Source: Parcubacteria group bacterium Licking1014_17
GTDB lineage: Bacteria > Patescibacteriota > Minisyncoccia > 2-02-FULL-40-12 > IGHO2-01-FULL-4-A
Length of the DNA stretch: 64,000 nt
Assembly: GCA_007376485.1 (NCBI GenBank)
Contig: VMGJ01000001.1
Location: 41,788-105,787 of the forward strand
Direction of reading: 5' to 3'
The translations under genes were made by a program, and so were the position numbers. A model generated the notes under the pieces. It ran no database searches. It was not told the DNA's origin and saw only the letters and a list, made by a program, of their open reading frames with translations. This document shows positions 10,642 to 33,588 of the stretch, piece by piece (the stretch's first letter is position 1; each line of letters opens with the position of its first letter).

Positions 10642-12447
10642 TTACTTTTCTATCCTGTACACAAAAATTGAGCCGCCGATATTTGCAACGGGTTTGTAGA
10701 TATCAAGCCATCTGTAATTCGGTTTGGAGGGATTTTTGTCGGTGCCGTAAGAACCGCGCAAAGATGTTGCCGAAACCGCCAGCCAGCCGTCCGACTGATT
10801 GTTTTTTATAAAATCGGCGACATCTTTATATTTCTTGGAATAGGTCCAGATATATCTGTCGCCGAGATAATAATGCGGGTCAGCCCAGCCGAAATAATCA
10901 AATTCAATTTTTTTGATATCCTGCCCTTTCACCCAGTCGCTGAATCTTATCAAATCCTGTCCCCAATCCAAGTTTGAATCAACCACATAATTGCTTGCCC
11001 CGTTAGAAACGGAGTTTTTTTCGGGGCTGGCGTTCGCCGTGCCGCTGATGAACTGGTTAAAATAACTTAAATAATTCGGGTAAGCGCGGAAATTTTCCAG
11101 CGCGTAAAAACCGATAATCACAAAAATGGCGGTAACGGTTATTTTACCCAAAGCGGCGCTCCTATTTTTTGCCGCGTTTATTATATTAACCATGGCTCCG
11201 GAAACCAGAATTATCGCCGCGCCGTAAATCGGCAAAAGATGGCGGATGCCGATATTCAGCCCGCCGATTACGCTTATGAAAATATAAACAGCCAGCCATA
11301 AACCGAGAGCCAATTCGTCAAAGTGATTTACGGCCCATGTTTTTTTATCTTTAGCCCAATCGCTTTTTATTGCCCGCGAAATAAACCAGACGATAGCAAC
11401 TACAACCAGAAACAGCCAGGCGATTGGTTCTTTTATCAAATAAACGAACGGGAAATAACCGCGCAGCGCCGTGCTGTAGACTTTGCCCAAGAAAAATATT
11501 GTGCCTCCTCCCCGCGCCGCCCGGTCCTCTGCCATCAAAACTCCGGCGCCATAATAAGCCAGCGCTCTCACGACCGGCACGCCCGAAAGCGTCTCTATTA
11601 TTTTTACAGGGACTTTGTTGGGATAAATCGCCAGAAATGTTTTTGTGTCCTGAATCTGCTTTTGAATAGGATAATTGAAAGTGTTTAAAAAATAAACCGG
11701 GGATACTATCAAAAATATTGCAATCAGAGTGATTTTTATGGTTCCGGAAATCGGGCGGCTTCCAGCGGTTTTTAGAAACACCGCGTAACCAACTATCGCC
11801 AGTATGAAAAAGTAGGGAACGAGAAGCACCGTGGAAAATTTTGTGAGCAGGGCAAAACCCAATCCGATACCTGCCCACCAGAGATTTTTTCCGGTCTGGT
11901 TTTTCAGGTATTTAATAAATAAATAAGAACTAACCAAAACGCCCGTCAACGCCGGCACGTCGGTAGTAACAAAATGGGCGTGCGAGAGAATCGTGGTTGA
12001 AAGGGAATACAAAACAACTGCGATAAACGAACCGAGCCGGCCGTATATTTTTTGAGTCCATACAAAAACAGCCGTGCCGCCAAGAATGAAAAATAACAGC
12101 ATTGGCAAACGGGCGACGAACCGGATTTTGTCGGCGTCATTGCCCGTAGTGTTGAATATGAGACTTCTGCCGAAATTCCACTCCCCATCCACGCCTTTCT
12201 GCCAGTCGGCAGAATCAAACGCGCCCTGCTTCAGCGGCAAAGCCAGCAAGGCGATTCCCGCCAGATCTTTCACCAAAGGCGGGTGTTCAGGATTCATTCT
12301 CATATCGGCTTTTTTGACGTAGGAATAGCCGGCGCCGATATGGGGAACCTCGTCAATAATAAGCGATTCGTGCCACGAGCTTGCATAACTTAAAACAGCG
12401 CCAAGAAGAATAACAGCCGCCGCCAGAAGAATTGCCGAACGTTTCAT
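10642..12447 (-). CDS. GT-C fold glycosyltransferase (ArnT/PMT family 39-like), polytopic membrane
   Basis: 601 aa, >10 TM helices in N-terminal part, first-loop 'IIDEVPH' acidic motif, C-terminal soluble domain; start overlaps stop of upstream paralog (TAATG). Confidence 0.6.
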   Translation of the reverse strand: MKRSAILLAAAVILLGAVLSYASSWHESLIIDEVPHIGAGYSYVKKADMRMNPEHPPLVKDLAGIALLALPLKQGAFDSADWQKGVDGEWNFGRSLIFNTTGNDADKIRFVARLPMLLFFILGGTAVFVWTQKIYGRLGSFIAVVLYSLSTTILSHAHFVTTDVPALTGVLVSSYLFIKYLKNQTGKNLWWAGIGLGFALLTKFSTVLLVPYFFILAIVGYAVFLKTAGSRPISGTIKITLIAIFLIVSPVYFLNTFNYPIQKQIQDTKTFLAIYPNKVPVKIIETLSGVPVVRALAYYGAGVLMAEDRAARGGGTIFFLGKVYSTALRGYFPFVYLIKEPIAWLFLVVVAIVWFISRAIKSDWAKDKKTWAVNHFDELALGLWLAVYIFISVIGGLNIGIRHLLPIYGAAIILVSGAMVNIINAAKNRSAALGKITVTAIFVIIGFYALENFRAYPNYLSYFNQFISGTANASPEKNSVSNGASNYVVDSNLDWGQDLIRFSDWVKGQDIKKIEFDYFGWADPHYYLGDRYIWTYSKKYKDVADFIKNNQSDGWLAVSATSLRGSYGTDKNPSKPNYRWLDIYKPVANIGGSIFVYRIEK

Positions 12448-14015
12448 TATTCAAGAGGTATCACAACCGCGTTCTTTGGTAAACTGTAGCCCGAATCTAT
12501 AAGTTTGGGAGTAACATAATAAATATTGCGCTGTTTTTGCTTTTCCAGCGTGAATGTATCAGTCAGAAACATTACCGTTTGAGCGGGCATCGGGATTCCG
12601 TTAACTTGGACCCCTCCAGCTTTGACTAAAACGTAAACCGGTTTTGAAAGCGATTGCAGATAAACCTTATCGGCAAGCTTCACGTAATTTTCATTGAAAG
12701 CCGCGGCGGTGTTCGGGTCTTTAGCCCATTTGTTGAAATATTTGTCGTATTCAACGACGGAGAAAGAGAAGAGCAGAATGCAAATCGCGATTGTGGCAAT
12801 GAAAGTATCTTCAGCCACAAAGCCCGGAATTTCTTTTTCGTGCTTCGGGTCCTGCTCGTGATAACGTTTCTCTATCAGCGTGAATATCCACCAAAGCGTT
12901 TCAGCAGCAAAAATACAGACGACCGGCGTGACGAGGATGGTTCTCAAGGCGTGGGGGATTCCTTCGTTGGAAAATATTCCCGGCAGGAGTCCGATTACCA
13001 GCCAGGATAAAAGCATCGCGTGCGCCGCCGAATGGTGGCCGTGGGCTTCTTTGGATTTTACCGTTTTAACAATGCTTCTGATGACGCCGATTAAGAAAAG
13101 TATCCCAACCGGCCAGATAAGCATCGCCGAGCCGGATAGATTATGGCGCCAGTTCAAGTCGCCTTTCGTGAAAAACATCGCGATTGTTTTTCCGGCATTG
13201 GCTATTATTTGCCACAGGGGATTATCGGCGCTAAAAACCGATACCTGTCCGGCGCGGTAGAATAACATGCCGGGATTATTCATAAAGTACCAAACCAAAG
13301 GCGCCGCGGCTAAAATGCCGAGTATAATGGTCAGTCCCAATCCGCGGAGAATGTAATTGCTGGCGTGCTTGCCTGCTCCGACGGCGACATGTTTTCTGAC
13401 GGTAGCCCAATACACCACTAAAGTTATTATAGCTATCAACGGAGCGACCCTGAAAGGCAGGTATGTCTGCAGCCCAAGTCCAAACAACAAACCGCTCGCC
13501 CCGAAGTCCCATAAACTTGCCCTCGCAAGCCCGAGCCAGAAGAAATACAAAGCCCAGACCAGAAACAGAGGGGCCAGAATGCCGGCAAAGGCGATGCGGG
13601 AAAATAAAACATGCCAGAAAGAAATCGCCAGCAAAAAACTTGCGAATGCCGCCGTCTGCCAATTGAATAATTGTTTGACCAGCAGATACAAACCAAGCAC
13701 CGTCAGCGTGCCGGCAAGCGCCGGTATCAATCTTAATACCCACGGCTTATTGCCAAACGCGTTTGTCGCTATCGAGAGCAGGTTAATATACAACCCCTCC
13801 CGTCCGTTATTGTCTTTGTAAAATACTTTGTAATTTCCGGTTTCGTATGCCTGAATGGCTTCGTTGCCGTTTATGGCTTCGTCCGGATAAAGTCCGGGCG
13901 GAGTAGCGGCTAAATTATTGAAGCGGAAAAACGCGGCGGTGAAAAGTATAAAAACCGCCACAATCAATTCTTTTTTCTTATGGTTCATAATCTGATAATA
14001 GTAGTAATGGGACAT
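12447..14015 (-). CDS. GT-C fold glycosyltransferase (ArnT/PMT family 39-like), polytopic membrane
   Basis: 522 aa, multi-TM, 'GLYPDEAINGNEA' resembling the ArnT/PMT DE loop motif; paralogous to downstream gene. Confidence 0.6.
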   Translation of the reverse strand: MSHYYYYQIMNHKKKELIVAVFILFTAAFFRFNNLAATPPGLYPDEAINGNEAIQAYETGNYKVFYKDNNGREGLYINLLSIATNAFGNKPWVLRLIPALAGTLTVLGLYLLVKQLFNWQTAAFASFLLAISFWHVLFSRIAFAGILAPLFLVWALYFFWLGLARASLWDFGASGLLFGLGLQTYLPFRVAPLIAIITLVVYWATVRKHVAVGAGKHASNYILRGLGLTIILGILAAAPLVWYFMNNPGMLFYRAGQVSVFSADNPLWQIIANAGKTIAMFFTKGDLNWRHNLSGSAMLIWPVGILFLIGVIRSIVKTVKSKEAHGHHSAAHAMLLSWLVIGLLPGIFSNEGIPHALRTILVTPVVCIFAAETLWWIFTLIEKRYHEQDPKHEKEIPGFVAEDTFIATIAICILLFSFSVVEYDKYFNKWAKDPNTAAAFNENYVKLADKVYLQSLSKPVYVLVKAGGVQVNGIPMPAQTVMFLTDTFTLEKQKQRNIYYVTPKLIDSGYSLPKNAVVIPLE

Positions 14016-14079
14016 ATACGGTCATCTTAGCACATTAATGTTCTATATTCTTGTTTTAATATCCACAAATCAGGGGATA

Positions 14080-14108
14080 TTGACACACATTGCCGCTCGT
14101 GTAAAATA
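14080..14108 (+). promoter_or_regulatory. sigma70-like promoter of groESL
   Basis: -35 'TTGACA'(14080-14085), 17-nt spacer, -10 'TAAAAT'(14103-14108). Confidence 0.55.
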
Positions 14109-14114
14109 TCCTCA

Positions 14115-14141
14115 TTGGCACTCTCATACTTTGTGTGCTAG
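14115..14141 (+). promoter_or_regulatory. CIRCE-like inverted repeat (HrcA operator-like)
   Basis: 'TTGGCACTC-N9-GTGTGCTAG' vs CIRCE consensus 'TTAGCACTC-N9-GAGTGCTAA' (15/18), immediately downstream of -10, upstream of groES. Confidence 0.45.
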
Positions 14142-14217
14142 CATGTTTTTGCACCCAGTTAAAAATCCGGCATCTTTGGGGTTGCGGGTTTTTTGACTTT
14201 GTGCTTTATTATTAACT

Positions 14218-14505
14218 ATGAAAATAAAACCATTATCCGACAGGGTTCTTATTGAACCCATAAAAGAAGAGAAGAAAAAAGGCGGGATAATTCTGCCCGA
14301 AACGGTGGAGAAAGAACGCCCGCAGGAAGGGAAAGTTATTGCCGTCGGACCGGGCAAGAAAGACGATAGCGGCAAACTAATGCCGATGAATGTCAAGAAG
14401 GGCGATAAAGTCCTCTTCACCAAATACGGACCAAATGAAATAAAGGTCGAGGACAAGGAATACTTGATTGCCCGCGAAGAGGATATTTTGGCGATTATTG
14501 AATAA
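14218..14505 (+). CDS. groES: co-chaperonin GroES
   Basis: 95 aa, '[26 protein letters not shown]' canonical Cpn10. Confidence 0.93.
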
Positions 14506-14543
14506 TTTGGTATTAGTTAAAAATTCGTTGCAAAAACCACAGT

Positions 14544-16336
<1,793 letters not shown>

Positions 16337-16344
16337 TTAATTAT

Positions 16345-16495
16345 TATGCCTTTTCGGGACTAAATTTTCGCCAGCGACGAAAATTTATCTGATGAGATTG
16401 CCTCTGTTTGTCAAGATATTTACCCCGACTATAAGTCGGGGCTCAATCATTGACAAAACCGTGCCAGAGGCAATCTCAACAGCCCTCAAAAGCAC
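16345..16495 (+). repeat. structured intergenic element family B, copy B3
   Basis: Hairpin 'TAAATTTTCG-CCAGCGA-CGAAAATTTA'; stem 'GAGATTGCCTCTG'/'CAGAGGCAATCTC' (fully compensatory vs B1). Confidence 0.8.
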
Positions 16496-16600
16496 AATAA
16501 TCTTTTACATTTGACTTTTGGTTGGTTTTGTGATAGCATTATGAAAGCATCTTAAAACCTTTTATTCTTACATTCTTGTCTGACCCGAAAGGAGACGGTC

Positions 16601-16897
16601 ATGAAAAAGTTTCTTCTGATTGTATCAAATTTTCTTTTCCCTCCTGAACATCTGTGTGTTGATCTTCAGAAGGCCGGCATCGGCATCATTCGGTGGCCGG
16701 GAGAGACCGACCAAACCGGTGCCAGATTCAACGGCATCAACTGGGTAGAGGTAGCAAAAGCCCGCGAAGCGGGAAGCCGGACTGTCCAGGAAAAAATGGA
16801 CATCACCGTTTTGTCCCGCGAGGCGGTGAAACGGGGAAAAGAAAATATAAAACTGGCGGTAGTAGCTGTTGCCGCCAATAAAGGAAATAAGAAGTAA
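16601..16897 (+). CDS. hypothetical protein (98 aa)
   Basis: Promoter-like 'TTGACT..TAGCAT' and SD 'AGGAGA' upstream; followed by two hairpin terminators; no recognisable motif. Confidence 0.4.
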   Translation: MKKFLLIVSNFLFPPEHLCVDLQKAGIGIIRWPGETDQTGARFNGINWVEVAKAREAGSRTVQEKMDITVLSREAVKRGKENIKLAVVAVAANKGNKK

Positions 16898-16920
16898 ACA
16901 AAAAAGAGGAGAATGAAAGG

Positions 16921-16947
16921 GAAAGCCCAGTTTTACTGGGCTTTTAA
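16921..16947 (+). terminator. intrinsic terminator
   Basis: 'AAGCCCAGT-TTTA-CTGGGCTT' + 'TT'. Confidence 0.55.
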
Positions 16948-16960
16948 ATTTAAATAAAGA

Positions 16961-17001
16961 AAGCCCCTAACCTCTTGCGGAGATTGGGGGCTTTTTAAAA
17001 A
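16961..17001. terminator. bidirectional hairpin terminator between convergent genes
   Basis: 'AAAGCCCCTAACCTC-TTGCG-GAGATTGGGGGCTTTTT' flanked by A-run and T-run. Confidence 0.55.
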
Positions 17002-17019
17002 GAGCCGTGTTACCGTCAT

Positions 17020-17925
17020 TCACTTAATTTCCTCAAGGCTCGCAGGCCGTAAATTATTAATTGCCTGCTGGACTGCCTCAAAGACAACTTCAGAGAGGAG
17101 GGTGTTCTGGATGCCCTCTACTTTTTCCGTTCCCCATGGCATCCTGACTCTCTGGCAGGATTGGGCAACACCCGTTGCAAAACCACTGGAACCGAGAACC
17201 ACATTACCATTGGGGTCTTCAAACCACATATTGATAAAGAATGACACTAAATATTGACCTTTCTTCTTTTGGGCCCCACGCACGACATTAAAGATGTCGT
17301 TCCTTATTTTTTTGTTTTTGTAACGTGTTCCGACTATACTGTCGGCGAGAGCAGTGATTTCATTATTTCCACTGGCACTCTTCCCCTCATAACGACTTCC
17401 TGAAATTCCGATGCAACTTTTGAGGATAAACGCCGGGGACTGCTCGGAATTCGTGAGCCGGTATCCGCTACTGTTCCGGAAAGCTCTGCTTAACTCCCCT
17501 AGAACATAGAGCTGGAGAGGCATGACACCGCGACTATTGGACTGATTTCCTCTCCAATAGTTCATATTGTTAAAACCATAATTGTCGGAACCGCAACCCA
17601 TCTGGTTGAGCCAATGTCCGATGAATCCCGTATCTAAACCGAAATTACCCTGCGGAAATATGAATATGTCCCAGTCGCCGCGATATTTATCCACTAATTC
17701 CGGCAGGTAATTCCTCTCCGGCATTTCAACCCGGATTAATGATATCCCGGGTGCCCCAACTTTTTTCCAGGATTCTTTTTCCAGATCAATCTGGTTCAGT
17801 TTTTCAATGTTGTAATTAGGCGGAGTTGGTAGCTGTTTTGATTCTTTTTTTTTGCCCGCCGCCGCGGGCGGCAATAATAGCAAAGACAAGACAAGAAATA
17901 TCAATATCGTTTTCAGATATTTCAA
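17020..17925 (-). CDS. hypothetical secreted protein (signal peptide)
   Basis: 301 aa, N-terminal 'MKYLKTILIFLVLSLLLLPPAAAG' signal peptide; start overlaps upstream stop; no recognised domain. Confidence 0.6.
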   Translation of the reverse strand: MKYLKTILIFLVLSLLLLPPAAAGKKKESKQLPTPPNYNIEKLNQIDLEKESWKKVGAPGISLIRVEMPERNYLPELVDKYRGDWDIFIFPQGNFGLDTGFIGHWLNQMGCGSDNYGFNNMNYWRGNQSNSRGVMPLQLYVLGELSRAFRNSSGYRLTNSEQSPAFILKSCIGISGSRYEGKSASGNNEITALADSIVGTRYKNKKIRNDIFNVVRGAQKKKGQYLVSFFINMWFEDPNGNVVLGSSGFATGVAQSCQRVRMPWGTEKVEGIQNTLLSEVVFEAVQQAINNLRPASLEEIK

Positions 17926-19364
17926 TTTTGTTCTCCTCTAGCCATTTCGGCCGGTTGTTTACTGATAATGACAAAAAGCACGTCTTTGGTAAAACTCATT
18001 GTTGATCTGTCGGGCAGGTTAAGGTGAAATTCTAAAACAGCTACCAAATTTTCTGGAATACTGAATTCCGCTTCTCTTCCCAATGTAAAGGATTTTTCCG
18101 CCTGTACCCCGTTGACGTCGTAACGCAGCGTGCCTATCAGGGCTAAAAACCTCTCATCCGGCATTGGAAAAAGATTCATATCTCTTCTTCCGACATCTCT
18201 TGGTGTCCAATTCATCCCCTCGGGACCAACACAGATGTTTTTTGTTTCCAGCTCGTAAGAACAAACCTGCCCGATTGCCTTGACTGTGTATTCTCCCGGT
18301 TCCAGATTGACAATCCGCCACGAATATCTGAGACTCGGATCAAGATCAAGTTTAATCACTGCTGGCGTAATGGCACCGGAAACCACGGCGCGTCCAGTTT
18401 CTTCGGTTTGCTTTTCCGGAATGGGCGGCGGTATCGCATCAACCTTGGCTGACTCTATTTTTAATTTAACCCTTGTTCTTTCTTCCGCTTTCCTGTCTGC
18501 TTCTTTTCTGTCAATCTCGGCTTGCTTGCAGATTAGGTCTATCTCTACCTGCGTGTCGACAGGCTCGAGCCGTTTTCCAGTGGCCGGATGGAAGCCATCC
18601 TCTTCAAAAAGCCCGATTCTCCCGCTGGCATCTTTCCCGTAATACCAAACGTAAGTGACTGTGGGGTTGCCTTTATCGTCAGTGTCGGTTTTTGTCCAAG
18701 AAAATTTACCACAATCGCCAATTGATTCAAGCGAATATTCTTTAGGAACAAACAGCCTTTCTCTTTTGATTTCTTTAGCCTCTTGCATGTCGTGTCGCTG
18801 AACATTTTCTAATCTCGCGCCCAGTCTCTCTTGGTATCCGAACCTTACGATAAGAATGGTAATAACCAATCCAATACGAACTAAGTGAAATTGCCAGCCG
18901 ATTTTTTCAATCGGCAGCCACATTATCAGGGAGACAAGGATGCAACCGCCCAACATTAAAGTGGTAATGGCATGTCCCGCGAAATGCTCGGTTGAGAACC
19001 CGCTGGTGATTATCGCGAGAAGACAGAAAGAGGTTATCATCCACGCGACTATCCGCAACGCCGTCCCGAGAGCCGGAATTTCTTTTGTCAGGATGATGAG
19101 GACGGTAATCAGAGGAACAAAGGCAAAAAGCAGAACAGAAATCGCTCCTGTGGACAACGCGAGGAAAATCGCGTGAACCGACGAATTGCCCGTGAATGAA
19201 CCGATTGTCAGCCACCCAGCCATAAGCAGGATAAAGACTGCCATCGCGACGCCGAGAAATGCCAGCCATATTCGGATGCCCCTGAAAACGTGATCTCCTA
19301 ACCAGCAAAGTGCTTCCCAGGAAGTTCCTAATAGTTCACCGATAAAATCAACTATTTGATTCAT
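17922..19364 (-). CDS. hypothetical polytopic membrane protein with C-terminal soluble domain
   Basis: 480 aa, ~6-7 predicted TM helices in first 200 aa, charged coiled segment 'AEIDRKEADRKAEERTRVKLK', beta-rich C-terminus; start overlaps upstream stop. Confidence 0.6.
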   Translation of the reverse strand: MNQIVDFIGELLGTSWEALCWLGDHVFRGIRIWLAFLGVAMAVFILLMAGWLTIGSFTGNSSVHAIFLALSTGAISVLLFAFVPLITVLIILTKEIPALGTALRIVAWMITSFCLLAIITSGFSTEHFAGHAITTLMLGGCILVSLIMWLPIEKIGWQFHLVRIGLVITILIVRFGYQERLGARLENVQRHDMQEAKEIKRERLFVPKEYSLESIGDCGKFSWTKTDTDDKGNPTVTYVWYYGKDASGRIGLFEEDGFHPATGKRLEPVDTQVEIDLICKQAEIDRKEADRKAEERTRVKLKIESAKVDAIPPPIPEKQTEETGRAVVSGAITPAVIKLDLDPSLRYSWRIVNLEPGEYTVKAIGQVCSYELETKNICVGPEGMNWTPRDVGRRDMNLFPMPDERFLALIGTLRYDVNGVQAEKSFTLGREAEFSIPENLVAVLEFHLNLPDRSTMSFTKDVLFVIISKQPAEMARGEQN

Positions 19365-20029
19365 TTCTTGCCTCTGTGCCAGCGAGCCTGATCAGCCTTC
19401 CTTTTTTCTTGAATGGCTTTTTTCGTCTCGCGGAGTTTAGCGGTTAAAGATTCAAGAGAATCCGATTTGTCCTTAATTTCTTTCTCTTTTGAGTAAAGGC
19501 AGAGAAGGATTTCCTGACTTTTTTTGTCCGCCTTTAGAAATTTTTTGATTTCTTCTGGCGATAATTCGGAAAGTTTTTGAAATACATGATTTCGTTCTTT
19601 CTCGCTTCTTCCCTCGAGTAATATGGCCAGGTGACCAGTAAATGCGATAAAATCTTCTTCCTCCAACTTAACAGCTGTTTTTAGAAGATTTTTTACCGGC
19701 TCACCCTGCTCAAGGGCAACAATATCACCAATACTTTCCTTTATACCATTGACAAACCCGGTTCTTTTTAATGCCTCAGCGGGAACATCATCCACAATTT
19801 CTTTGAAGAATTTTCCAAGCGCCGAATTTTCCGGGATATTTTTACTGACGATGGCGCCAGTCAATACCAAGGCAGCGCCAATAATTCCCTTCTGGATTTT
19901 AGGCAAATCCCGGAGTCCCTTCAGAGGACCCTCAAAAAGCTTGTCATACTGCCCCTCAAGCAGGGCCTTACCCAAAGTTGAGCTGCCCATAGAAAACACA
20001 TCACTCAATCCCGGAAATTTGATACCCAT
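19361..20029 (-). CDS. hypothetical protein, first gene of 3-gene operon
   Basis: 222 aa, one hydrophobic segment 'GIIGAALVLTGAIV', lysine/glutamate-rich C-terminus; no recognised motif. Confidence 0.55.
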   Translation of the reverse strand: MGIKFPGLSDVFSMGSSTLGKALLEGQYDKLFEGPLKGLRDLPKIQKGIIGAALVLTGAIVSKNIPENSALGKFFKEIVDDVPAEALKRTGFVNGIKESIGDIVALEQGEPVKNLLKTAVKLEEEDFIAFTGHLAILLEGRSEKERNHVFQKLSELSPEEIKKFLKADKKSQEILLCLYSKEKEIKDKSDSLESLTAKLRETKKAIQEKRKADQARWHRGKK

Positions 20030-20253
20030 TATGACCTCCGATTTTGAATAGGTTAAACACGTTTTAGATTAGCATCTATTTATCGCTGTTGTTTAAATTG
20101 TCAAAGAACAATTCCGTTATACGATATTATGGGGTTTTAGTAAATAACATGAACTAGGTAAAGCCCTCGCCATTCTTCGGCAGCGGGTTATTTTTGTCTT
20201 GTTTATAACTGATTATTGTATTGTTTGCCGGCCGTGTTACGATACAGATAACA

Positions 20254-22860
20254 ATGAAAAATGCCAATTTGGCAAGAATCACTGCGGGGAAGCAGTTTTT
20301 CGGGTTAGGGAAAAAACTCGGGCTGTTTTTGTTTGTAATTTTTTCCGTTTGGATTTTATTTTTTGTTGTCGGGAAAAATGTAGCCGCGGATATTGCTTAT
20401 AGCTGCACCACCAAAGCTTCTGGCAATTGGGACGACCCCAATATCTGGAGCGGTTGTAATCCGACTTCTGGTTATCCGCAAACGAACGACACGGTTACGA
20501 TTGACGGCAATAACCAGGTGACATTAAATGTTCCCTCAGCTACCATCGCCGGACTTTCTTTCAGGGATACGGGATCCTTGGTTCATAAAAACGGAAACTC
20601 GCTGGCAATTAGCGGCTCGGTCGCGCTAAGCCAGCCCATAAGCGGAAATGACGTGTTTAATCAATGGCAGATAAATGATGGTTCGGCGATTGCCGTCGGG
20701 CAGATTTCTTTGGGCGGAATCGGTGCCGGCAAACTTGGCAGTAAGATTATCATTACTTCCGGAACCTTGACTGCCAAGAGCGGCATCGCTTTCCTGTGTA
20801 ACGGGCTAAATTACGAAAATTGCGTTCTTGATATGTCCGGCGGCGCGGGACGCGTTAACGTGAAAGGTCCCTTAGGTGGAATTGAAAATGCGACATTAGT
20901 GGCTGGATCAGAAAGCACAATCAGTTTCATTGATGATTCAGCAGACATGGACATTTATATGTCATGGGGCAGCGGCAGTTTTAATAATATTGAGATTAAC
21001 AGCTCCGATAAAAACGTTTATTTGGGCGAGGACATAACGCCTTTGAATGTCTTAGGAAATTTAACGGTATCAAGCGGGGTGTTTAAGCAAAACGGATATA
21101 ATGTCGAGGGCAATAATGGCAAAACACTTGAGGTAAAGAACGCCGGAACCTACGTTATAGAAGGCAATGCAACATTTCCCCCGGGTTTTGGCGCTTATTC
21201 TTTCGATGAAACCAGCACCGTGGTGTACGCGCAGAATGTAAATACGGCCATTTCGGCTCAAAACTACGGCAATGTTACGATAGAACCGGATCAGCCGGCT
21301 GATAGCGGAAGCATTGTTTTCACAATTGACCAGGGCAAGATTGTTATGGCCGGTGGCTTAGCGATAGAAACAGGAATCGCAGCCAAACCGATCACGGTTG
21401 ATGCGAATAAGAACGAAGTTCTTCTGGATATCGGAATCGGAGGCGTAATGATAGCGCAAAATGCCGAATTAATAGCCAATGGCAAAAATTTTCTCGAAAA
21501 CGACGGACCGTGGATAAACGAAGGAACATTCACTCACAACAACAACGCGGTTTATTTCGGCGGCGACAAATCAGATGCATATAAATTCATTCCGGGCAAA
21601 AGTTCGTTTTACAATCTTTTTATTGTCGGCAAGAGCATTTGGGACCTGAATAGCAACGATTTAAATGTGGAGAATTTGTTGAAGGTGGACAATGGCATAC
21701 TTTCCGGCACCGGAAACGTTGAAGTTAATGGCAATGTTGATTGCGCTTTTTCCTGCGCCGGTTCAATAAACATGACCGGCGGCAATTTTACGGTTAGGGC
21801 GCCGAAGGATGTTAATTTCGGCACCATTGGCGGTTCCGCTGACTGGCTGTTTAATAATCTCACTTTTAATAATTCTGATTCATCCGAACATACAGTAACC
21901 GCAAGCGCCGGCGGAACAGGAGAAATCAAAATCAGCGGCGTATTGACCGTTGGCGACGCCGATGATATAGCTAAAACTGTTTTTGACGCGAGTAACCGGA
22001 CTTGGGAATTAAGCGGAGGAAAAACGCCGTTTGATATTGTTGCCGGTTCTTTCAAGTCAAACACCTCAACATTCAAATACACCGCGGCAGAAGATGCCAC
22101 CATAACGGCTGAAAGCTATTATAATCTTCAGATTATGCCGGGAGAAGAAAGCACTCATACGATTGCCGAGGGCGCGCTGGCGGTGAGCAGCAATCTTGAT
22201 ATTGGAGACAAGGGAGCCGGCACGGTGACGGCGGACGCGAATAATCCGACCATAGACATTGACGGCAATTTTTCAATCGCCGAAGATTCCACTTTTATCG
22301 CGCCCGGAAAAACGGTTCTTTCAATCGCCAAGAATTTTTCAAACAAAGGAATATTCACCAACAGCGGTGGGATGGTGAGTTTTGACGGTGACAAAGACAG
22401 CGTAATCAGCGGTGACAAAACGGCTTTTTATAGCTTATCAATTACGACGCCGGGCAAGAAAATGAAATTCAGCGCCGGCCAAACATTTAATATAGGAGGG
22501 GATTTCACCGTTACCGGTTCGGTAAGCGGCAGTATTTATATTTCATCCGATATAGAAGGCTCAAAATGGTTTATTAACAAACAAGGCAAAGATAACATAA
22601 CTTTTGCCGATATTAAAGATTCCGGATGCGACGAGAAAAGCGGGGATATCGCATGCGGAGAAACATCCATAAACAGCAGTAATAATGATTTCTGCTGGAA
22701 GTTCGGTTCCGGTTTAAGAATAACATCCTACCCAAACAACGCATCCAAATCGGTTATTCCGATGGCCAGCCCAGCCGGCAAAGCTTCCTATGCCGGTACC
22801 AGTACTTACACCAACCAACCCTTGCCGTCGTTAAGACCGTTACCGCCAATCCGCAGATAA
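20254..22860 (+). CDS. large S/T/G/N-rich cell-surface protein, paralog of the giant protein's N-terminal module
   Basis: ORF open from 20221; likely start ATG 20254 (MKNANLAR..) then TM 'LFLFVIFSVWILFFVV'; 'YSCTTKASGNWDDPNIWSGC' module and C-terminal 'W[FV]INKQG..DSGCD' module both shared with 22939..31227. Confidence 0.75.
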   Translation: MKNANLARITAGKQFFGLGKKLGLFLFVIFSVWILFFVVGKNVAADIAYSCTTKASGNWDDPNIWSGCNPTSGYPQTNDTVTIDGNNQVTLNVPSATIAGLSFRDTGSLVHKNGNSLAISGSVALSQPISGNDVFNQWQINDGSAIAVGQISLGGIGAGKLGSKIIITSGTLTAKSGIAFLCNGLNYENCVLDMSGGAGRVNVKGPLGGIENATLVAGSESTISFIDDSADMDIYMSWGSGSFNNIEINSSDKNVYLGEDITPLNVLGNLTVSSGVFKQNGYNVEGNNGKTLEVKNAGTYVIEGNATFPPGFGAYSFDETSTVVYAQNVNTAISAQNYGNVTIEPDQPADSGSIVFTIDQGKIVMAGGLAIETGIAAKPITVDANKNEVLLDIGIGGVMIAQNAELIANGKNFLENDGPWINEGTFTHNNNAVYFGGDKSDAYKFIPGKSSFYNLFIVGKSIWDLNSNDLNVENLLKVDNGILSGTGNVEVNGNVDCAFSCAGSINMTGGNFTVRAPKDVNFGTIGGSADWLFNNLTFNNSDSSEHTVTASAGGTGEIKISGVLTVGDADDIAKTVFDASNRTWELSGGKTPFDIVAGSFKSNTSTFKYTAAEDATITAESYYNLQIMPGEESTHTIAEGALAVSSNLDIGDKGAGTVTADANNPTIDIDGNFSIAEDSTFIAPGKTVLSIAKNFSNKGIFTNSGGMVSFDGDKDSVISGDKTAFYSLSITTPGKKMKFSAGQTFNIGGDFTVTGSVSGSIYISSDIEGSKWFINKQGKDNITFADIKDSGCDEKSGDIACGETSINSSNNDFCWKFGSGLRITSYPNNASKSVIPMASPAGKASYAGTSTYTNQPLPSLRPLPPIRR

Positions 22861-22938
22861 CAATTAAATAGATTTCCCCACTTCTCAACAATCCGCGGTT
22901 TAACTTCCCCGCGGTTTTGTTAAAATATACAGGTAACA

Positions 22939-25900
22939 ATGAAAAGGATTGATTTAAAGAAGATCATCCATACTGGTCAGTTTTTTGCCGTGAAAAAGAT
23001 TTTCGCAACAAAAAGAACTCTCAAGCTGATTTTTGCCGCTGCCATAACAGCTACCGTCATATTTATTGTCATTTTCTCCTTTGTTAATGCCGGTCTTTTC
23101 AACTTCTATCCTCAAACCTGCCTTGGCGACTGGGAATACGCCGAAAACGCTTCCGGCAAACCCGACCTTCCTCCCGACGCCACTACCGAGAAATTTGATA
23201 AGAACAATTCCGCCTTCTTTTCCGGCGGTTACCGCAAGATATTCTGTGGCAACTTCAGAAGCAATGATGAATCCGGAGATAAAATCTTCCAGAAAGCAAA
23301 ATTGAGGTTGTCGTGGACACTCGTGCCGGACATCAACTCTGCGGTGCCTGTCATCGACCAATCCGAGTTTCAAAAAAATATACTGGATTATAGCGGGGAC
23401 GAAAAGATTATCGTGGTTCCCGATGAAGAAAAATCCGCTCCCGAAAAACAAGAGAATACGGTTTTACCTTCACCCGATGTAAGTTCATCAGCCGAAGAAA
23501 AAACACTGGAGCCGGTTCCGTCAGAATCACCCAGCCCTCAATCCGAATCGATTCCACCGACCGAGTCACCGCAATCTCCGGCGGAAGAGAATACCGCCCA
23601 AGAAAACGCTGATGTCGGCGAGCCGAGCAGTTTTAATGGAACATCTTTATTTAAAATGGGGCTTCTTGGCGTTTTCAGGACAGCGCTTACAGAGAATATC
23701 GGATCACTTCTGGGGTTAATAATGGAAATTAACAACAACAGCAGTTCCAGCTTGGAGGAAACGCTAACTCCTACAGAGCCCTCGGTTTTCATGCCCGAAA
23801 TAAGTATGGAGACGACTTCTGAAAAAGTTGAAACAAGTTCTACGCCCGCGAGCATTGCCGCCGGCGACGGCACGGCCTCAAAATCGGAATCCCCTCTGGA
23901 AAAAGAAATAATACCGCCAAAATCTTTGGATGATTTTCTTGAAATACTTTACAGCGTTGACGGCAAAAACTGGGAATCCATCGGCAATGTAAATCTTGAC
24001 AGTTTCAATAACGCCGAATTTGAGGTGCCTATTATTTCATGGAACGAACTGGCGAATCTCCAAATCAGAATCGGCGGGACGGGGCTGACGGACAGCGTGA
24101 GCGGAGTGTATTTGGACGGGATGTGGCTGGAAGTCAGTTATAGCGACAGTCAAGACGAGGTTGTTAGCGAGGATATAATGAGGGGATTGCCGAAAGTTCA
24201 GGTCAAAGACTCGGACGTTTTCAAATCAAAGAAAAAAGATTTTCGCTTTAACGAAGACGTGAAGTTTGAAATTAATCTTGGAAAAACGGCTTCCGGGAGC
24301 GTTGATGAAAACACGAAACCGCCAGCAACGCCTGAACCGTCGTCGCTTCTCAAAAATTCTTATAAAAATATTTTGGGCGCCGAGAGCGCCTTAGCCGCCG
24401 GCAGGATTGTTGAAGCCAGAGTATACAGCCCGACCGGCAAGCTGACAAATATAAAACCGTATATCAAGCAAGATACGGGGACTGAAACCGCGCAAATCTT
24501 TTTTTCGCCGCCCGGGCGAGCATACAAATCGGGCAAATACAAACTGGTCGTTGAGATTCTTCAGGATGACCGGGTAGTTGTGGCGGAACACGATTTTACC
24601 TGGGGTGTCCTTGCTTTGAACGCCAATAAGTCCATCTATATACCGGGCGAGTCGGCTTATCTTCAGTTCGCTTCGTTGAGCAATATAGGGCACACTTTGT
24701 GCGACAGCAATCTTGAGCTCATTATCACTCCGCCAAAAGGGCCAGAGTGGGTATTAAGCGTAGAGGACGGCGATATAAAAAGGAGCGACACCTGCGGACC
24801 CAATAATTATACCGACAAACCGGATTACTACGCGTATTACACGCCCGAATACACGGGCGCTTACGGACTCACACTGAAAAATTTGGATAACGGGAATGAA
24901 ATAACCGACTCCATTCAAGCCGACGGTTTGGTTGATATGGATGTGGAACGCGTCGGTGCGACGCGCATTAATCCGTTTTTGGGACAGAACTATTTTACGA
25001 CCATTAATATCAAAGCAGGTCAGCCTTTTGAGGGAGAAATTGTGGATACGCTCCCAAAGGGATTTGTGGTTATGGGCAGTTCCGATTACATTGTCCGCAA
25101 AACACCGACGGGCGACGTAGAAGTAGTATGGAGAAAAATTTTATTGCGTGGGGACACGGCTATCCTGACCTATGAATATGACCCGGCTGATATCTCGCCG
25201 GAGCTGTTTCTTCTGGGTCCGTTAAAATTTATCGCGAAGTCGGATCCGCTATCGTCTTTTTTTCAGGAAGCGCGCCAGTGGCAACTGGCGTCGGATTATT
25301 CCTGCGTCGCAAAAGCGACCGGCGCCTGGAGTGCCAGCGGCACTTGGACAACATGTAATTCAACCACACCCCAACCGACGGATACGGTTACAATCGCCAC
25401 AACATATGTTGTGACATTGGATACTTCGGCTACCATCGCCGGTCTTAGCCTTGCAAACACAGCTCAACTGAATCATCCCGGCACAAATGCCCTAACTGTG
25501 AATGGTTCAGTTGCCCTTACACCGCCGCCGACAGTCAATTTTAATCAATGGAACATTGCGGGAGGTACCGCGACCGTAACCGGCGCGATAACGTGGGGTG
25601 CCGGTGGCAGTTCAAAGGTATCTAAGATTTTAATTACAACCGGAACATTAAATGCCAGTGGCGGATTATCATTCGGCTGCCTTAATTACCCGGCAAGCTG
25701 CCTTATTGATATGTCGGGGGGCGCGGGCACTTTAAATTTAAGCGGCGCCATAACAAGCGTAACCAAAGGGCAACTAACGGCCGGGACCACCAGCACTTTC
25801 GTATACGCTGACCAGAGTGCCGACCAAACAATACAAATGGCTTGGGGCGGCGGCAGTTACAATAATCTTGGAATTAATAACGGCGCTAAGGTGGCAACCG

Positions 25901-28900
25901 TAGCCGAAAATATAACGACATCAAACGTGAGCGGTAGTATAACAGTTACCAGTGGCACTTTCAACGCCAGTAATGTTACGATTGCGGGCAACAGCGGCAA
26001 AACATTTGAGGTTGATAACGGAGCCACCTTCACGATGAGCGGCAATACAACTTTTCCGACCGGCTTTTCCACGTTTACTTTTCAGAGCACGAGCACCACA
26101 AAATACGGACAGAGTGTGGATTCGGATATTTCGGCGCAGAGCTATGGTTATCTGATAGTCAGTCCTGTTGCCGACCCCTCCAGCCACAGCGCTGATTTTT
26201 ATCTTGCTTCGGGAACCATTTCCACCGCCAGTGCTTTTATTGTCGCTTTGGGTTCCGCTGCCACTTCAGTTTTTGTTAATGCCGACACGAACGACCCGAC
26301 TCTTGATATAAACAGTTATTTGTCCATAGGCGCGAGCACGACTTTTCAGGCTTCAAATTCCGGAACTTTCACCATCAACGGCAGTTTGTTTAACGCCGGC
26401 ACGTTTACCCACAATAGCGGCACCGTCACTTTTGACAGCACCGCGAGCGGCAGGGGGATAAATATGAACGGCAGTTCACTATATAACTTGACGATTAACG
26501 GTTCCGGCGGCGAATGGTCGTCGCTCACAAATATGCTGACAGTAGCCAATGATTTAATCTTGACCGCCGGAACTTTAAACAATGCTTCCGGCAGTGCGGA
26601 CATTGAAGTCAACGGAAACGTTTCCTGTAACGGCACCTGCGGCACAGTCAGTTTGACAGCCGGAAAGTTTACCCAGAAAGTTGCCGCCGACAAAAATTTC
26701 GGAACGTCAGTGGCTGTTGCCACTGCCTGGACTTTCAATGCCTTGCATTTCACCAACAGCAGCGGCACCGACAGGATAATCACAACCAGTACCACCGGCA
26801 CCGGAACCATCACCGTAACAGCTTCCATGTCCATCGGCGTTTTCAGCGCCACCAACAAAGCCACGCTTGACGCCGACCACAGAACCTGGATTTTAAGCGG
26901 AAGTAATGAAGCCGATGCACACATTCCTCTTTCCATTGACGCCACCAAAGGAGCTCTAACCGCTCACGCATCGATTTTCCGCTACACCGGCAGTTCCACT
27001 ACCACAATCGAGGCGGCAACCTACTACAATCTTGAAGTAAAACCCGGTGGTGCCGTGACCCATACTTTCAAAGCGGGGACGACGACGGCTTACACTTTAA
27101 CCGCGGGAGACGGATCCAATAGCGGAACAATAACCACCAATACCAATAGCACGACCCTTGATATTGGTTTTGGAGGAGTTTCTATAGCTGCCTATGGCAC
27201 TCTCGTCGCCCATGCCAGCAATGCTTTTACTGTTGAAGGTTCATGGACAAACGCCGGCACTTTTACTCATAGTAGCGGCACGGTAACTTTTGACGGAACG
27301 ACGGTAGCTTCAATTCCAGTAACAACCGGCGGCAGTTCTTTCAATAATTTAATGATAGCGGGAGCGGGTAACTTCGCATTGCAGGATTCAACGACAATCG
27401 CCGGCGATTTGAAAGTAAACAGCGGCACCTTTTCTGGTGGCGTTGTCACGACTGTTAACGGCGACGTAACTTGTGTTACCACCTGCGGCACGATAAACTA
27501 TGCCAGCGGTATTTTTATACAAAACGTTGCCGGAAACAAAGCCTTCGGCACTACCGCCGGTACTGCTACGTGGACATTTAATGTTCTTCACTTTGCCGCC
27601 AGTGACGGTACTGACAGGGTGATTACCGCCAGTTCGGGTGGCACCGGAACCATCACCGTCACTGCCTCCATGTCCATCGGCGTATTCAGCGCCACTAACA
27701 AAGCTACGCTTGATGCCGGCAACAGAACATGGATTTTAAGCGGAAGCGACTCAAACGGTGATTCTCCCCTATCTATAGACGCCACTAAGGGCGCCTTAAC
27801 CGCTAACACGTCAACTTTCCGTTATACCGGCAGTTCAGCCACTACGATTGAGGCGGCTACTTATTACAATCTTGAAGTAAAACCCGGCGGCGCCGTGACC
27901 CATACTTTCAAGGCGGGGACAACAGGAGCAAATCATTTACTTACTATTGGCGACGGAGCTAATAGCGGAGTCGTAACAGCAAATACCAACAGTACTATTT
28001 TGGATGTAGGCGACGGCACAAGCGGCAGCGGCGTTTCAATCGCCGCCAGCGCCACGCTGACGGCCAACGCCAGCAACGGTTTCACGGTTTACGGCTCATG
28101 GACAAACGCCGGCACGTTTACCCACAGCAACGGCACGGTTACCTTTGACGGGGATGATGACTTAATTAGCTTTACCCTTACTCCGGCAAGCAGTCCATTC
28201 TACAATCTGACCGTAAATAATACGGGAGGCGCAATATGGACATTACAAAGCGGTCAGACTCTTATTGTAGCTAACGATTTATATATTAACGGCGGGACAC
28301 TGAACGACGATAGCGCTACTGCCATGGTTTTTAACGGAAACGTAACCTGTTCGGTGACCTGCGGTATTATCAACACCTCTGCCAATGTTATCCAAAACGT
28401 TGCCGCCAATAAAGTCTTCGGCACTACTGCCGGCACCGCCGCCTGGACTTTCAAAGCCCTTCATTTTGCCAACAGCAATGGAACCGACAGATTAATCACT
28501 ACCAGTTCGGGTGGCTCCGGAACCATCACCGTCACTGCCTCCATGTCCATTGGCGTTTTTAGCGCCACCAATAAAGCTACGCTTGATGCCGGCAATAGAA
28601 CTTGGATTTTAAGCGGGAGCGACTCAAACAGTGATCCCCCCTTAACTATTGACGCCTCCAAAGGGGTTTTGACTGCCAATACATCTACATTCAGATTTAC
28701 CGGTAGTTCCGCCACCACAATCGAACAAGCGACTTATTACAACCTTGAAGTAAAACCCGGCGGCGCCGTGACTCATACTTTCAAAGCGGGAACAACAGCG
28801 GCTTACGGGCTAACCGCTGGAGATGGAGTCAATAGCGGAGTCATAACGGCCAACACCAACAGCACAATCCTTGATATAGGTTTTGGGGGAGTTTCCATAG

Positions 28901-31230: not shown

Positions 31231-33588
31231 ATGTTTATCAGGGATGATTTTATAAATAGTTTTGATTATATTCTCTACAGGATAATCAGGTTCGGCATTC
31301 TGTTCGTGCCGTTTATTTCTCTGGTTGTAATTAGGAATATTTATTCGCCGTTTGAATTCAGTAAAGGGATTGTTTTCCGGGTAATCACCGAAATAATTTT
31401 TTTCATTTATGTTTATCTGGCGTTTAAATATCCGAATCTCCGCCCGTCTTTTTTTAAAAAAAGGCCGGATAAATATGTGCTGGCCGGTTTGGTCGCCTTA
31501 GTGGTTCTCGTAGTATGGCATTTTATTTCCGGATTATTCAGTTCAAGCTGGACTCTTAGTTTTTGGGGCTATATAGAGAGGATGGGCGGCATTTTCGCGT
31601 TGCTTCACTATATCGCTTTTTTTGGAGTTGCCGCTTCAATACTGCGCACGAGGAAAGAGTGGGAAAATCTTATCTGGGCTTCGGTGGCGGCGGCGCTGAT
31701 TTCATCAGTTTACGGCATTCTGCAAAAATATTCCGTAAGCGCGGTTGTCGGCGCGGACCAGAGGTTCAGAATTTTCGGGACCGTCGGCAACCCGGCTATA
31801 TTCGCCGGCTATCTGCTTTTTAATTTCTATTTTGTTTTATACCTGTCTTCGCGTCAGGAATCGAAAATACGCAGATTCCTTCTGTATTTCGCCGCATTCA
31901 TATTCGCATCCGCGATAATTTTGTCAGCCTCCCGGGGAGCGGCGGCGGCTCTAATTGTAAGTTTTGTTTTTTTGATTTTTTATATTCTGTATAAAAAAAG
32001 CGCCAGTCCATACGGAAAAAAGAAGAGCTTGATTATCGCGGCGCTCGCGGTAGTCATTATTGCCACAATTTTTTCCGGGATTGTATTAACTCGTTCCGGG
32101 TCCGGGCTCGGATATTTTTCCAGACTGACCGATTTCAGTGTGAAGAGCGGCTCCATAAATTCGCGGTTGCTTGTCTGGGGCATGGCGCTAAAAGGGATAG
32201 CCGAAAAACCGGTTTTGGGCTGGGGTCCCGAAAATTTTATAGCCGTTTATTACAAGAAATACGACCCTAAAATGTATGAGTCGCCGGCTCAAGATTATTC
32301 TTCTGACAGGGCTCATAATATTATTTTGGATTGGCTGGCTGCCGTCGGTGTTGTGGGCTTGCTGTCTTATCTGCTGATTTGGTACTGCGCGATAAGGAAA
32401 ATTGGCGCCCGGGATTACAATGATATGCCGTATTTTTCTCGAGGAGCGCTTTATGCCGCCGCCGTCGCGTATTTTGTTTTTAATTGCACTTTTTTTGACA
32501 CGACTAACACTTATCTGATGGTTATTTTTTTTATGGGCTTGGCTTTTCTTTGGGACGATTATGTGGCAGACGGAGTGGCGACAAAAGTGCCGGAAGGTAA
32601 TACCCCGGTCAACACCGTAGTCGGCGTATTGGCTCTGGTTTCCTGTTCTATTTTAATTATCTGGGCGAATATCCTGCCGTTTCTGTCAAACTATTATACA
32701 AATATGAATAAGAGGGCAAACAGCAGGGGGGATTTCGGGGAAGCGTTTAAGTATCTTGAACTCGCGAGAAACACCGCCACATGGACGGAAACCGACGCCG
32801 TGAGGAATTTAACTTCAGAACTGATAACCGCCCTGAACACGCAAGCGGATTATTTTAAAAACGAAGATAACAGAAAATCTTTCGGGGTTATCGCGCAGGA
32901 TCTTCGCGACGAGATGGAAAAACGTCCGGAGGACGCCGCTTCGTACACTTTTTTATTTAAAATGGAACAAATACTCGCGGCAAATTTTGGAAAGCAGATT
33001 AAACCCGTTGAAGATACCATCTGGACAGCAACCGCCATATTTCCCAAATTGATTCCGCTTTATTATGAACTTTATTACAGCGCCTTGATACGAAATGATT
33101 TTGAAGGAGCCACGAATGTAGCGAACAAAATATTGGAAATCAGACAGGACTTGCCCTTTGGAAAGTTTTGGCTCGCGTATGTCATAACTCGGAAGGATTT
33201 AAACGATAAAAATAGGACAAAACTGCGGAGTTCTTTAAATACCTTGGGCGACAGCTTTGACAGTTCGTTGTTTAACGCAGGCGATAATTACGGCAGTATA
33301 AAACCGTTGCTTGACGAGTTGAGTTATAAATTAAGGAAGACGGGTTATTATCTGGAGATGAGAGATTTGCATTTAATGATAGCAAAATATAAGCCTTCAA
33401 GTTATGTTTATGCGAGCTACGCGAGTTATATGATGCGTGACTTAAAATCAGCCATGAAATACGCCGACGAAGCGCTCGCTCTTGACAATAGCCTAATGAG
33501 CAGTAAGGACTATGAAACATTAGCCGACATTTATGGGGCATTGGGTGATAGAAAAAAACAAGGAGAAGCATACATAAAGATTCAATAA
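31231..33588 (+). CDS. Wzy_C (O-antigen ligase / O-oligosaccharyltransferase-like) polytopic membrane protein with C-terminal TPR repeats
   Basis: 785 aa; ~12 TM helices; 'SASRGAAAALIVSFVFLIF' matches Wzy_C/RfaL/PglL-type ligase core; C-terminal ~300 aa of TPR-like helical repeats ('DYETLADIYGALGDRKKQGEAY'). Confidence 0.65.
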   Translation: MFIRDDFINSFDYILYRIIRFGILFVPFISLVVIRNIYSPFEFSKGIVFRVITEIIFFIYVYLAFKYPNLRPSFFKKRPDKYVLAGLVALVVLVVWHFISGLFSSSWTLSFWGYIERMGGIFALLHYIAFFGVAASILRTRKEWENLIWASVAAALISSVYGILQKYSVSAVVGADQRFRIFGTVGNPAIFAGYLLFNFYFVLYLSSRQESKIRRFLLYFAAFIFASAIILSASRGAAAALIVSFVFLIFYILYKKSASPYGKKKSLIIAALAVVIIATIFSGIVLTRSGSGLGYFSRLTDFSVKSGSINSRLLVWGMALKGIAEKPVLGWGPENFIAVYYKKYDPKMYESPAQDYSSDRAHNIILDWLAAVGVVGLLSYLLIWYCAIRKIGARDYNDMPYFSRGALYAAAVAYFVFNCTFFDTTNTYLMVIFFMGLAFLWDDYVADGVATKVPEGNTPVNTVVGVLALVSCSILIIWANILPFLSNYYTNMNKRANSRGDFGEAFKYLELARNTATWTETDAVRNLTSELITALNTQADYFKNEDNRKSFGVIAQDLRDEMEKRPEDAASYTFLFKMEQILAANFGKQIKPVEDTIWTATAIFPKLIPLYYELYYSALIRNDFEGATNVANKILEIRQDLPFGKFWLAYVITRKDLNDKNRTKLRSSLNTLGDSFDSSLFNAGDNYGSIKPLLDELSYKLRKTGYYLEMRDLHLMIAKYKPSSYVYASYASYMMRDLKSAMKYADEALALDNSLMSSKDYETLADIYGALGDRKKQGEAYIKIQ

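Follow-up and report, generated by a model that had tools for sequence, protein, structure and literature searches.

The galactophilic lectins of the PA-IL/LecA family (PF07828) include Pseudomonas LecA, Photorhabdus PllA, and the N-terminal domain of Enterobacter EclA, and LecA itself is a free soluble tetramer with a length of 121 amino acids. A domain predicted to have the same fold as these lectins is encoded by a three-gene operon of Parcubacteria group bacterium Licking1014_17, which was examined here within a 64,000-nucleotide stretch of the genome (contig VMGJ01000001.1, positions 41,788 to 105,787 of the forward strand), hereafter called the window. The genes of this operon are designated A, B, and C (CEN90_55, CEN90_54, and CEN90_53, respectively). 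Whereas LecA is a free protein, the LecA-type fold would here form the head of the five-transmembrane (TM) membrane protein B, and the conserved cysteine pair of this head is arranged differently. This predicted fold of one domain is the sole solid link to known biology. Judged from the searches described below, the operon is apparently a rare cassette that is present in several bacterial phyla and that matches no described family.

Other described systems also invite comparison. As in the rpoE-rseA-rseB operon, a cytoplasmic protein of ~200 amino acids, a membrane protein that has a domain outside the cell, and an exported protein are encoded in tight coupling. The proteins LptE, PelC, CsgG, and FlgO differ from C, which carries no lipobox cysteine, has an extra ~140 amino acids at its N-terminus, and comes from Parcubacteria, which are not known to possess an outer membrane, the site at which PelC, LptE, and CsgG act. 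Most genes of the candidate phyla radiation (CPR) are unannotated, and conserved cassettes of unknown role are common in CPR genomes. A search of the literature found nothing on the Licking1014_17 genome or on the cassette.

A rare cassette and its conserved core

Genes A, B, and C were confirmed by listing of open reading frames (ORFs) as three minus-strand ORFs with ATG, ATG, and TTG starts, respectively. The stop codon of A and the start codon of B share the sequence ATGA at positions 19361-19364, and the stop codon of B and the start codon of C share TTGA at positions 17922-17925, each constituting a 4-nucleotide overlap that can be read directly from the sequence. Shine-Dalgarno-like sequences (GGAGG, AGAGG, and AGGAG) are located 6 to 9 nucleotides 5' of the A, B, and C starts. 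An earlier note on this DNA, which was made from its letters alone, had described a translationally coupled three-gene operon encoding a membrane and a secreted protein. Both parts of this description hold, with the same ORF coordinates and overlaps; B is polytopic and C has a signal-type N-terminus. These ORFs can be regarded as genes rather than chance features because each has distant homologues, and these occur in other genomes in the same order and with similarly tight junctions. Within the window, each of the three genes is present only once.

The earlier note had also reported no recognizable motif and no known function, and this agrees with the outcome for all sequence libraries tried. 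The three proteins yield no match in Pfam, NCBIfam, PHROGs, PADLOC, or PDB sequence searches, the inclusion of homologues leads to no characterized family, and profiles built for A, B, and C likewise find nothing in the PDB. In a word-indexed search of 5.8 billion proteins, each of the three matches only itself. Orphan status was nevertheless ruled out by an exhaustive HMMER search that found relatives of all three proteins. Specifically, a phmmer comparison of the concatenated A, B, and C sequences with 1.84 billion representatives returned 62 proteins, with distant-homologue E values of 1e-17, 5e-12, and 6e-10 for the three proteins. Among these, ~35 proteins of 180 to 245 amino acids are A-like, four (P0004, P0015, P0016, and P0020) are B-like at full length, three (P0005, P0038, and P0051) are C-like, and ~20 larger ones have only a ~60-amino-acid motif in common with B. 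All of the homologue clusters are tiny, with one to four members. Thus far, A, B, and C appear to represent three new protein families, along with one new repeat motif, none of which is covered by a Pfam or NCBIfam model. Taken together, the module seems to match no known kind of system, a judgment that was reached by exclusion and at a modest depth of searching.

When the contigs encoding homologues were scanned with hidden Markov models built from the A, B, and C alignments, both phyletic distribution and gene neighborhood indicated that the cassette is kept across phyla and is not an orphan. The order A-B-C is kept in three CPR-like contigs (L003, L004, and L006), and B-C is kept in a fourth (L002), where the contig is cut. 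The A-B pair is kept in L001, L007, L008, L009, L010, L012, L013, L014, L015, and L016, and the third gene is absent from both L014 and L015. Wherever the sequence 3' of an A gene is available, a B-like gene comes next on that strand. The junctions range from -4 to +13 nucleotides among the 12 that were tabulated, and the L009 genes, as read from the sequence, also overlap. The hosts are represented by CPR-like contigs, in which the cassette lies amid housekeeping genes, by two metagenome-assembled genomes of Verrucomicrobiota, and by one contig with 73% GC. The conserved core of the cassette is A and the part of B that comprises the five TM segments and a WYY-containing motif, with the outer head and the third gene varying between lineages.

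The proteins and their predicted folds

In addition to gene structure, conservation, and synteny, the analysis shows the domain layout of the proteins and the predicted fold of the B head. The A family includes ~35 clusters, and the window protein is its founding member. Residues Y28, D81, E85, and R89 are invariant in the family alignment, E25 and D29 are nearly so, and the conserved residues concentrate in the N-terminal half of the protein. The C-terminal half displays the pattern 'LL.L..., WL...ER..., LS.EEL' and a basic tail. A hydrophobic segment had been ascribed to A, but residues 48-63 fall below the TM threshold, which no segment of the protein passes, and other family members align there to the amphipathic stretch 'KYxIEAGLYAL'. 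Thus, A is most likely soluble and cytoplasmic and, by inference, helical. None of the 32 aligned A members matches Pfam, and the family has no family-wide match in NCBIfam and none in the PDB. At both loci of the A subfamily P0008, P0011 (L014:99-1448 and L007:1-960), the gene located just 5' of A encodes a protein in which a DnaJ J-domain is fused to an S41 (tail-specific) peptidase.

Protein B had been credited with ~7 TM segments, but hydropathy analysis reveals five hydrophobic segments, and the same five are evident in eight of nine family members. Across these nine members, lysine and arginine (K/R) are abundant in the N-terminus and in loops 2 and 4 but not in loops 1 and 3. This positive-inside pattern over the five segments suggests a topology with the N-terminus inside and the C-terminus outside the cell. 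A weak match of the B profile to Rh50 (E 0.035) is not significant. One B-like gene (P0020; L005:5369-8727), on a CPR-like contig, stands alone without A or C. Its product retains the five-TM core and the WYY/GFHP.TG motif with a different C-terminus, and its placement beside groEL/groES and near a PMT_2 gene echoes that of the window operon.

The WYY/GFHP.TG motif is present in all B homologues, matches no Pfam model, and defines a mini-domain. Outside the family, the strongest local match in sequence is to undescribed multi-repeat membrane proteins such as P0006, P0007, P0014, and others, which carry this mini-domain (E 1e-10 to 1e-4). The corresponding repeat of ~60-70 amino acids ('FFDP.TG.P.VWY...G..E(L/F)FD..GFHP.TGE.L.P(V/I)T.E'), for which there is likewise no Pfam model, is present in two to five copies in P0006, P0007, P0012, P0014, P0017, P0018, P0023, and others. 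Unlike B, these proteins have ~3 N-terminal TM segments rather than five, multiple repeats rather than one, and ends formed by Sel1, PDZ, or SH3 domains. No A-like neighbor is present at the one multi-repeat locus that was inspected.

The head of B is a domain of ~140 amino acids with an invariant tryptophan, a conserved cysteine pair (C369/C379), and the motifs W..P and F.LN.P, and the conservation of the cysteine pair fits an extracytoplasmic location. The head is lineage-specific, being conserved in CPR-type cassettes and in P0004. A Gly-zipper-like end replaces it in L014, and unrelated sequences occupy its position in L009, L010, and L015. The idea, formed by eye, that these latter heads are CsgG/LPP20-like was not supported by hhalign. 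In L006, a single in-frame TGA at positions 2733-2735 interrupts the B homologue (ORFs 1548-2732 and 2736-2984) at the second, otherwise invariant head cysteine ('PEG-TGA-ISPDGASW' versus 'PEGCVAADGASW'). This codon could be a sequencing error, the mark of a pseudogene, a recoding site, or a selenocysteine codon.

Structure prediction was conducted with a construct composed of C and residues 325-480 of B, using a correctly aligned concatenation. The B head is modeled confidently, with predicted local distance difference test (pLDDT) values of 70-93, as an all-beta domain that has the features of the LecA-type beta-sandwich. When the model was compared with the PDB by using Foldseek, a search that the earlier note had envisioned, two classes of matches were obtained, namely cupin-type sandwiches and LptE. 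These matches are weak but agree in class with the LecA-type sandwich and with the envelope lipoproteins described next. A search of the BFVD with the structure produced nothing useful. Other structural matches fall in a group of alpha/beta envelope lipoproteins that includes LptE (9.3), PelC (9.3), CsgG (9.0), RlpB, and others. These can correspond only to the beta-alpha-alpha-beta-beta-beta-alpha part of C, residues ~165-295 of which may tentatively be said to resemble the LptE/PelC/CsgG lipoprotein fold. A single-sequence AlphaFold2 model of C had a pLDDT of 37 and was unusable.

The N-terminus of C (MKYLKTILIFLVLSLLLLPPAAAGKKK) contains no cysteine and no lipobox, and therefore C is not a lipoprotein. 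Its homologues, which comprise P0005, P0038, and P0051 as well as the products of the third genes in L002, L003, L004, and L006, have an N-terminus of like kind. Neither C nor these homologues match a Pfam model, including those for CsgG (PF03783), FlgO (PF17680), LpoB, and LptE. At both verrucomicrobial loci, the product of the gene following B has a signal peptide and a CsgG/FlgO domain that scores above Pfam thresholds. The proposal that C is a divergent CsgG/FlgO protein found no sequence support, such that only a low-confidence resemblance in fold is left. The link between the CPR C family and the verrucomicrobial CsgG/FlgO gene is therefore positional, with the addition of this resemblance.

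Genomic setting

The positions of the operon features are collected in the table below. The Shine-Dalgarno sequence of A is located within a 190-base-pair divergent intergenic region that A has in common with the surface-protein gene starting at position 20221. Two terminator-like sites follow the C stop codon, one read from the sequence (~16951-16993) and the other found by a scan (16922-16944). The operon is indeed located between groEL and a surface locus, as had been claimed, with groES/groEL at positions 14218-16336 (plus strand) and the giant surface-protein genes beginning at position 20221 (plus strand). Its GC content at third codon positions (GC3) of 0.41-0.49 is slightly lower than that of its neighbors (0.49-0.58). 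No tRNA or mobile-element gene is near the operon, and no RNA element from Rfam is located within positions 14000-23000.

Table. Features of the A-B-C operon in the window.
Feature	Position	Strand	Description
Gene A (CEN90_55)	19361..20029	-	222 amino acids, ATG start; ORF listing and self match
Gene B (CEN90_54)	17922..19364	-	480 amino acids, ATG start; polytopic membrane protein
Gene C (CEN90_53)	17020..17925	-	301 amino acids, TTG start; secreted protein
Five TM segments, B ~30-177	18834..19277	-	Hydropathy and K/R counts, nine family members
One copy of 'F..(T)G.P..WYY...G.I.LF...GFHP.TG..L.PV', B ~220-275	18540..18707	-	Alignments
Charged, proline-rich linker, B ~276-334	18363..18539	-	Presumed stalk; length and sequence vary (alignment)
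All-beta head, B ~335-473	17946..18362	-	Predicted PA-IL/LecA-type beta-sandwich fold
Signal-peptide-like hydrophobic N-terminus, C 1-24	17854..17925	-	Ends ...LLLLPPAAA/GKKK
Alpha/beta region, C ~165-295	17041..17433	-	Predicted beta-alpha-alpha-beta-beta-beta-alpha
GGAGG Shine-Dalgarno sequence of A	20035..20039	-	6 nucleotides upstream of the A ATG; read from sequence
Two successive hairpin and T-run terminator-like sites	16922..16993	-	Right after the C stop codon; sequence reading and scan

Between groEL and the operon is an ORF of 98 amino acids (16601-16897, plus strand) that is convergent with C and that has no family match, the best Pfam result being CAP-Gly at E 0.12. Beyond groES/groEL are two adjacent genes for PMT/PMT_2-type (GT39-like) membrane glycosyltransferases of 601 and 522 amino acids (10642-14015, minus strand), with a start/stop overlap at position 12447. 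On the other side, and divergent from the operon, are two very large surface-protein genes (20221-31227, plus strand). Their products of 879 and 2762 amino acids contain long internal repeats ('T.T..A..YYNLE(V/I)KPGG..THT...G') and have no Pfam match. These are followed by a Wzy_C (O-antigen-ligase-like) gene at 31231-33588 and a WxL-interacting-protein-like gene at 34476-35405, and immunoglobulin-like proteins are also encoded on this side. With two PMT-type glycosyltransferases, the Wzy_C protein, and the giant surface proteins, the setting of the operon in the window is one of cell-surface glycobiology.

Possible functions of the module

Our tentative proposal is that A, B, and C make up a single envelope-spanning module of the receptor type, in which an extracytoplasmic ligand, likely a glycan, is coupled to cytoplasmic A. 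Protein B would reside in the cytoplasmic membrane with five helices and its N-terminus inside, and outside the cell it would carry one WYY/GFHP.TG mini-domain, a charged stalk, and the LecA-fold beta-sandwich head. Exported C would join either the outer part of B or the same extracellular target by means of its LptE/PelC/CsgG-like alpha/beta domain, while A would dock on the N-terminal helix and the K/R-rich loops of B. The head and C could then bind the ligand, most likely a glycan or a glycosylated surface polymer, and this bound state would be relayed through the conserved membrane core to A. A receptor is suggested by the conservation of A and of the five-TM/WYY part of B, with the head and the third gene as exchangeable 'ligand' parts. 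Similarly, a glycan as the probable ligand is suggested by the lectin fold together with the surface-glycosylation neighborhood. The contacts between A and B and between B and C, the class of ligand, and any signaling are features that we infer.

Several observations weigh against this proposal. Neither A nor the membrane core of B has a homologue of known function, the B and C alignments are shallow (four to eight sequences), and C is poorly modeled in the joint construct (pLDDT 25-64). By sequence, the head does not belong to the PA-IL family, because B has no Pfam match at E<=1, its homologues have none, and hhalign gives the head profile a probability of only 1.9% when compared with LecA. 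Thus, the similarity in predicted fold is not homology, and sugar binding by the head would be only a guess. The sole segment aligned by hhalign spans LecA residues 40-79, and there is no reliable residue-level alignment with the Ca2+/galactose site of LecA, which we take to consist of Y36, H50, Q53, D100, T104, N107, and N108. The equivalent of LecA residues 99-108 in B is 'LNLPDRSTMSF' (family 'LN.P....'), where the ND...NN pattern is absent, and neither the Ca2+/galactose motif nor counterparts of D100, T104, N107, and N108 are recognizable. Furthermore, the CPR C family has no profile similarity to the verrucomicrobial CsgG/FlgO proteins (hhalign probability 0.2%). The cassettes of L003, L004, and L006 sit among housekeeping genes, and proximity to groEL and a surface locus is not conserved among cassettes. 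Finally, a passive adhesin or tether would be equally consistent with a conserved anchor that bears a variable head.

Such a tether would use B to anchor a lectin-like head at a distance from the cell, with C contributing structurally to a ring or layer, and would fasten a glycosylated surface layer or the host cell of this episymbiont-type bacterium. In this arrangement, A would be only an assembly or stabilizing factor and no signal would be passed. We consider this explanation rather unlikely, although a predicted LecA-fold head on a stalk is what it would call for, and adhesins typically have variable heads. Moreover, LptE, PelC, and CsgG-type proteins are structural components of envelopes, and a CsgG/FlgO gene occupies the third position in Verrucomicrobiota. 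The neighboring genes for PMT glycosyltransferases, the Wzy_C protein, and giant surface proteins, as well as the divergent promoter region adjoining the surface genes, are also consistent with fastening. However, the most conserved parts of the cassette are cytoplasmic A and the TM core rather than the exposed parts, the cassette is also found away from surface loci, and some cassettes have no third gene (L014 and L015).

It seems improbable that the operon encodes a membrane-tethered regulator in the style of a sigma factor and its anti-sigma factor, in which A would bind DNA or RNA polymerase via a degenerate helix-turn-helix resembling sigma region 4, and B would hold A and release it upon an envelope signal sensed by the head or C. 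The order of cytoplasmic, membrane, and exported proteins is that of sigE-rseA-rseB-type operons, and A has a basic C-terminal tail. Also, one of the 32 A members matches TIGR02937 (sigma70-ECF, where ECF denotes extracytoplasmic function) at E 6e-4, and hhalign places A residues 125-166 on region 4 of E. coli RpoE (residues 124-166). This latter alignment, with a probability of 2.4%, is a lead and not evidence, and both sigma signals are far below significance when the other 31 members are without a match. Unlike ECF sigma factors, A lacks sigma region 2 as well as a significant region 4, and its invariant residues are in the N-terminal half, which resembles nothing and is the only half that L001 keeps. 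Likewise, B has five TM segments, whereas an anti-sigma factor has one, and B carries no anti-sigma domain.

A quite improbable explanation is that the cassette is horizontally spread cargo of mobile elements that serves in conflicts, for example in surface exclusion, in anti-phage defense, or as a toxin-like membrane protein. A very patchy and rare distribution (Parcubacteria, Verrucomicrobiota, and a 73%-GC organism) and the small size of the clusters, at one to four members each, would accord with this role, as would the slightly reduced GC3 of the operon and an ORF6N (antirepressor-type) gene near the L015 cassette. The 73%-GC contig (L001:1627-5613) carries a truncated A of 105 amino acids and a full B directly downstream of genes for a 919-amino-acid ATPase resembling type IV secretion coupling proteins (TrwB/TraG-D_C/DUF87) and a PcfJ-like protein, and the A-B pair there is in a conjugative-element context. 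However, most loci lie amid housekeeping genes with no integrase or transposase, and tRNAs and mobile-element signs are lacking near the window operon. PADLOC-DB 2.0 provides no match at E<=1 for the window proteins and none for the B family, and the A family produces only scattered single-member matches (E>1e-3) to seven unrelated models. No phage or prophage membership is indicated by PHROGs, which give no significant match, or by IMG/VR, in which three scans with the A and B alignments found no relative, although these scans were limited by pattern and thus are weak negatives. Of the metagenome pattern scans, one was empty and the other yielded only two short contigs.

Lastly, a polymer export or insertion accessory, in which the five-TM core of B is a small channel or flippase-like unit and C is a funnel or plug, is highly improbable, given that the cassette offers no ATPase, barrel, or known transporter fold or motif, that the Rh50 match falls short of significance, and that the polymer-export accessory lipoproteins to which all the best structural matches of C belong (LptE, PelC, and CsgG) act at an outer membrane not known in Parcubacteria and were matched by a low-confidence model, even though a Wzy_C protein and glycosyltransferases are encoded in the window.

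The envelope-spanning receptor module can also be considered in a wider sense. It is possible, if somewhat doubtful, that A and the five-TM/WYY part of B constitute the core of an undescribed class of receptors that crosses phyla, with exchangeable extracellular heads, which would be a LecA-fold lectin in CPR bacteria and other domains elsewhere, and with an exported co-receptor as an optional part. In the present Parcubacterium, which depends on a host, the module would detect or hold on to a glycan on a surface or on the host and would report to A, a new kind of cytoplasmic effector. The cassette is a testable candidate for how tiny, host-dependent CPR cells recognize or hold surfaces or hosts, and the same core is found in Verrucomicrobiota as well as in one or more high-GC bacteria, which are perhaps easier to study. 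If the cassette is a signaling device, it would join two-component, ECF, and chemoreceptor systems as a new class, and if it is only a tether, it would still present a LecA-type lectin in a new way.

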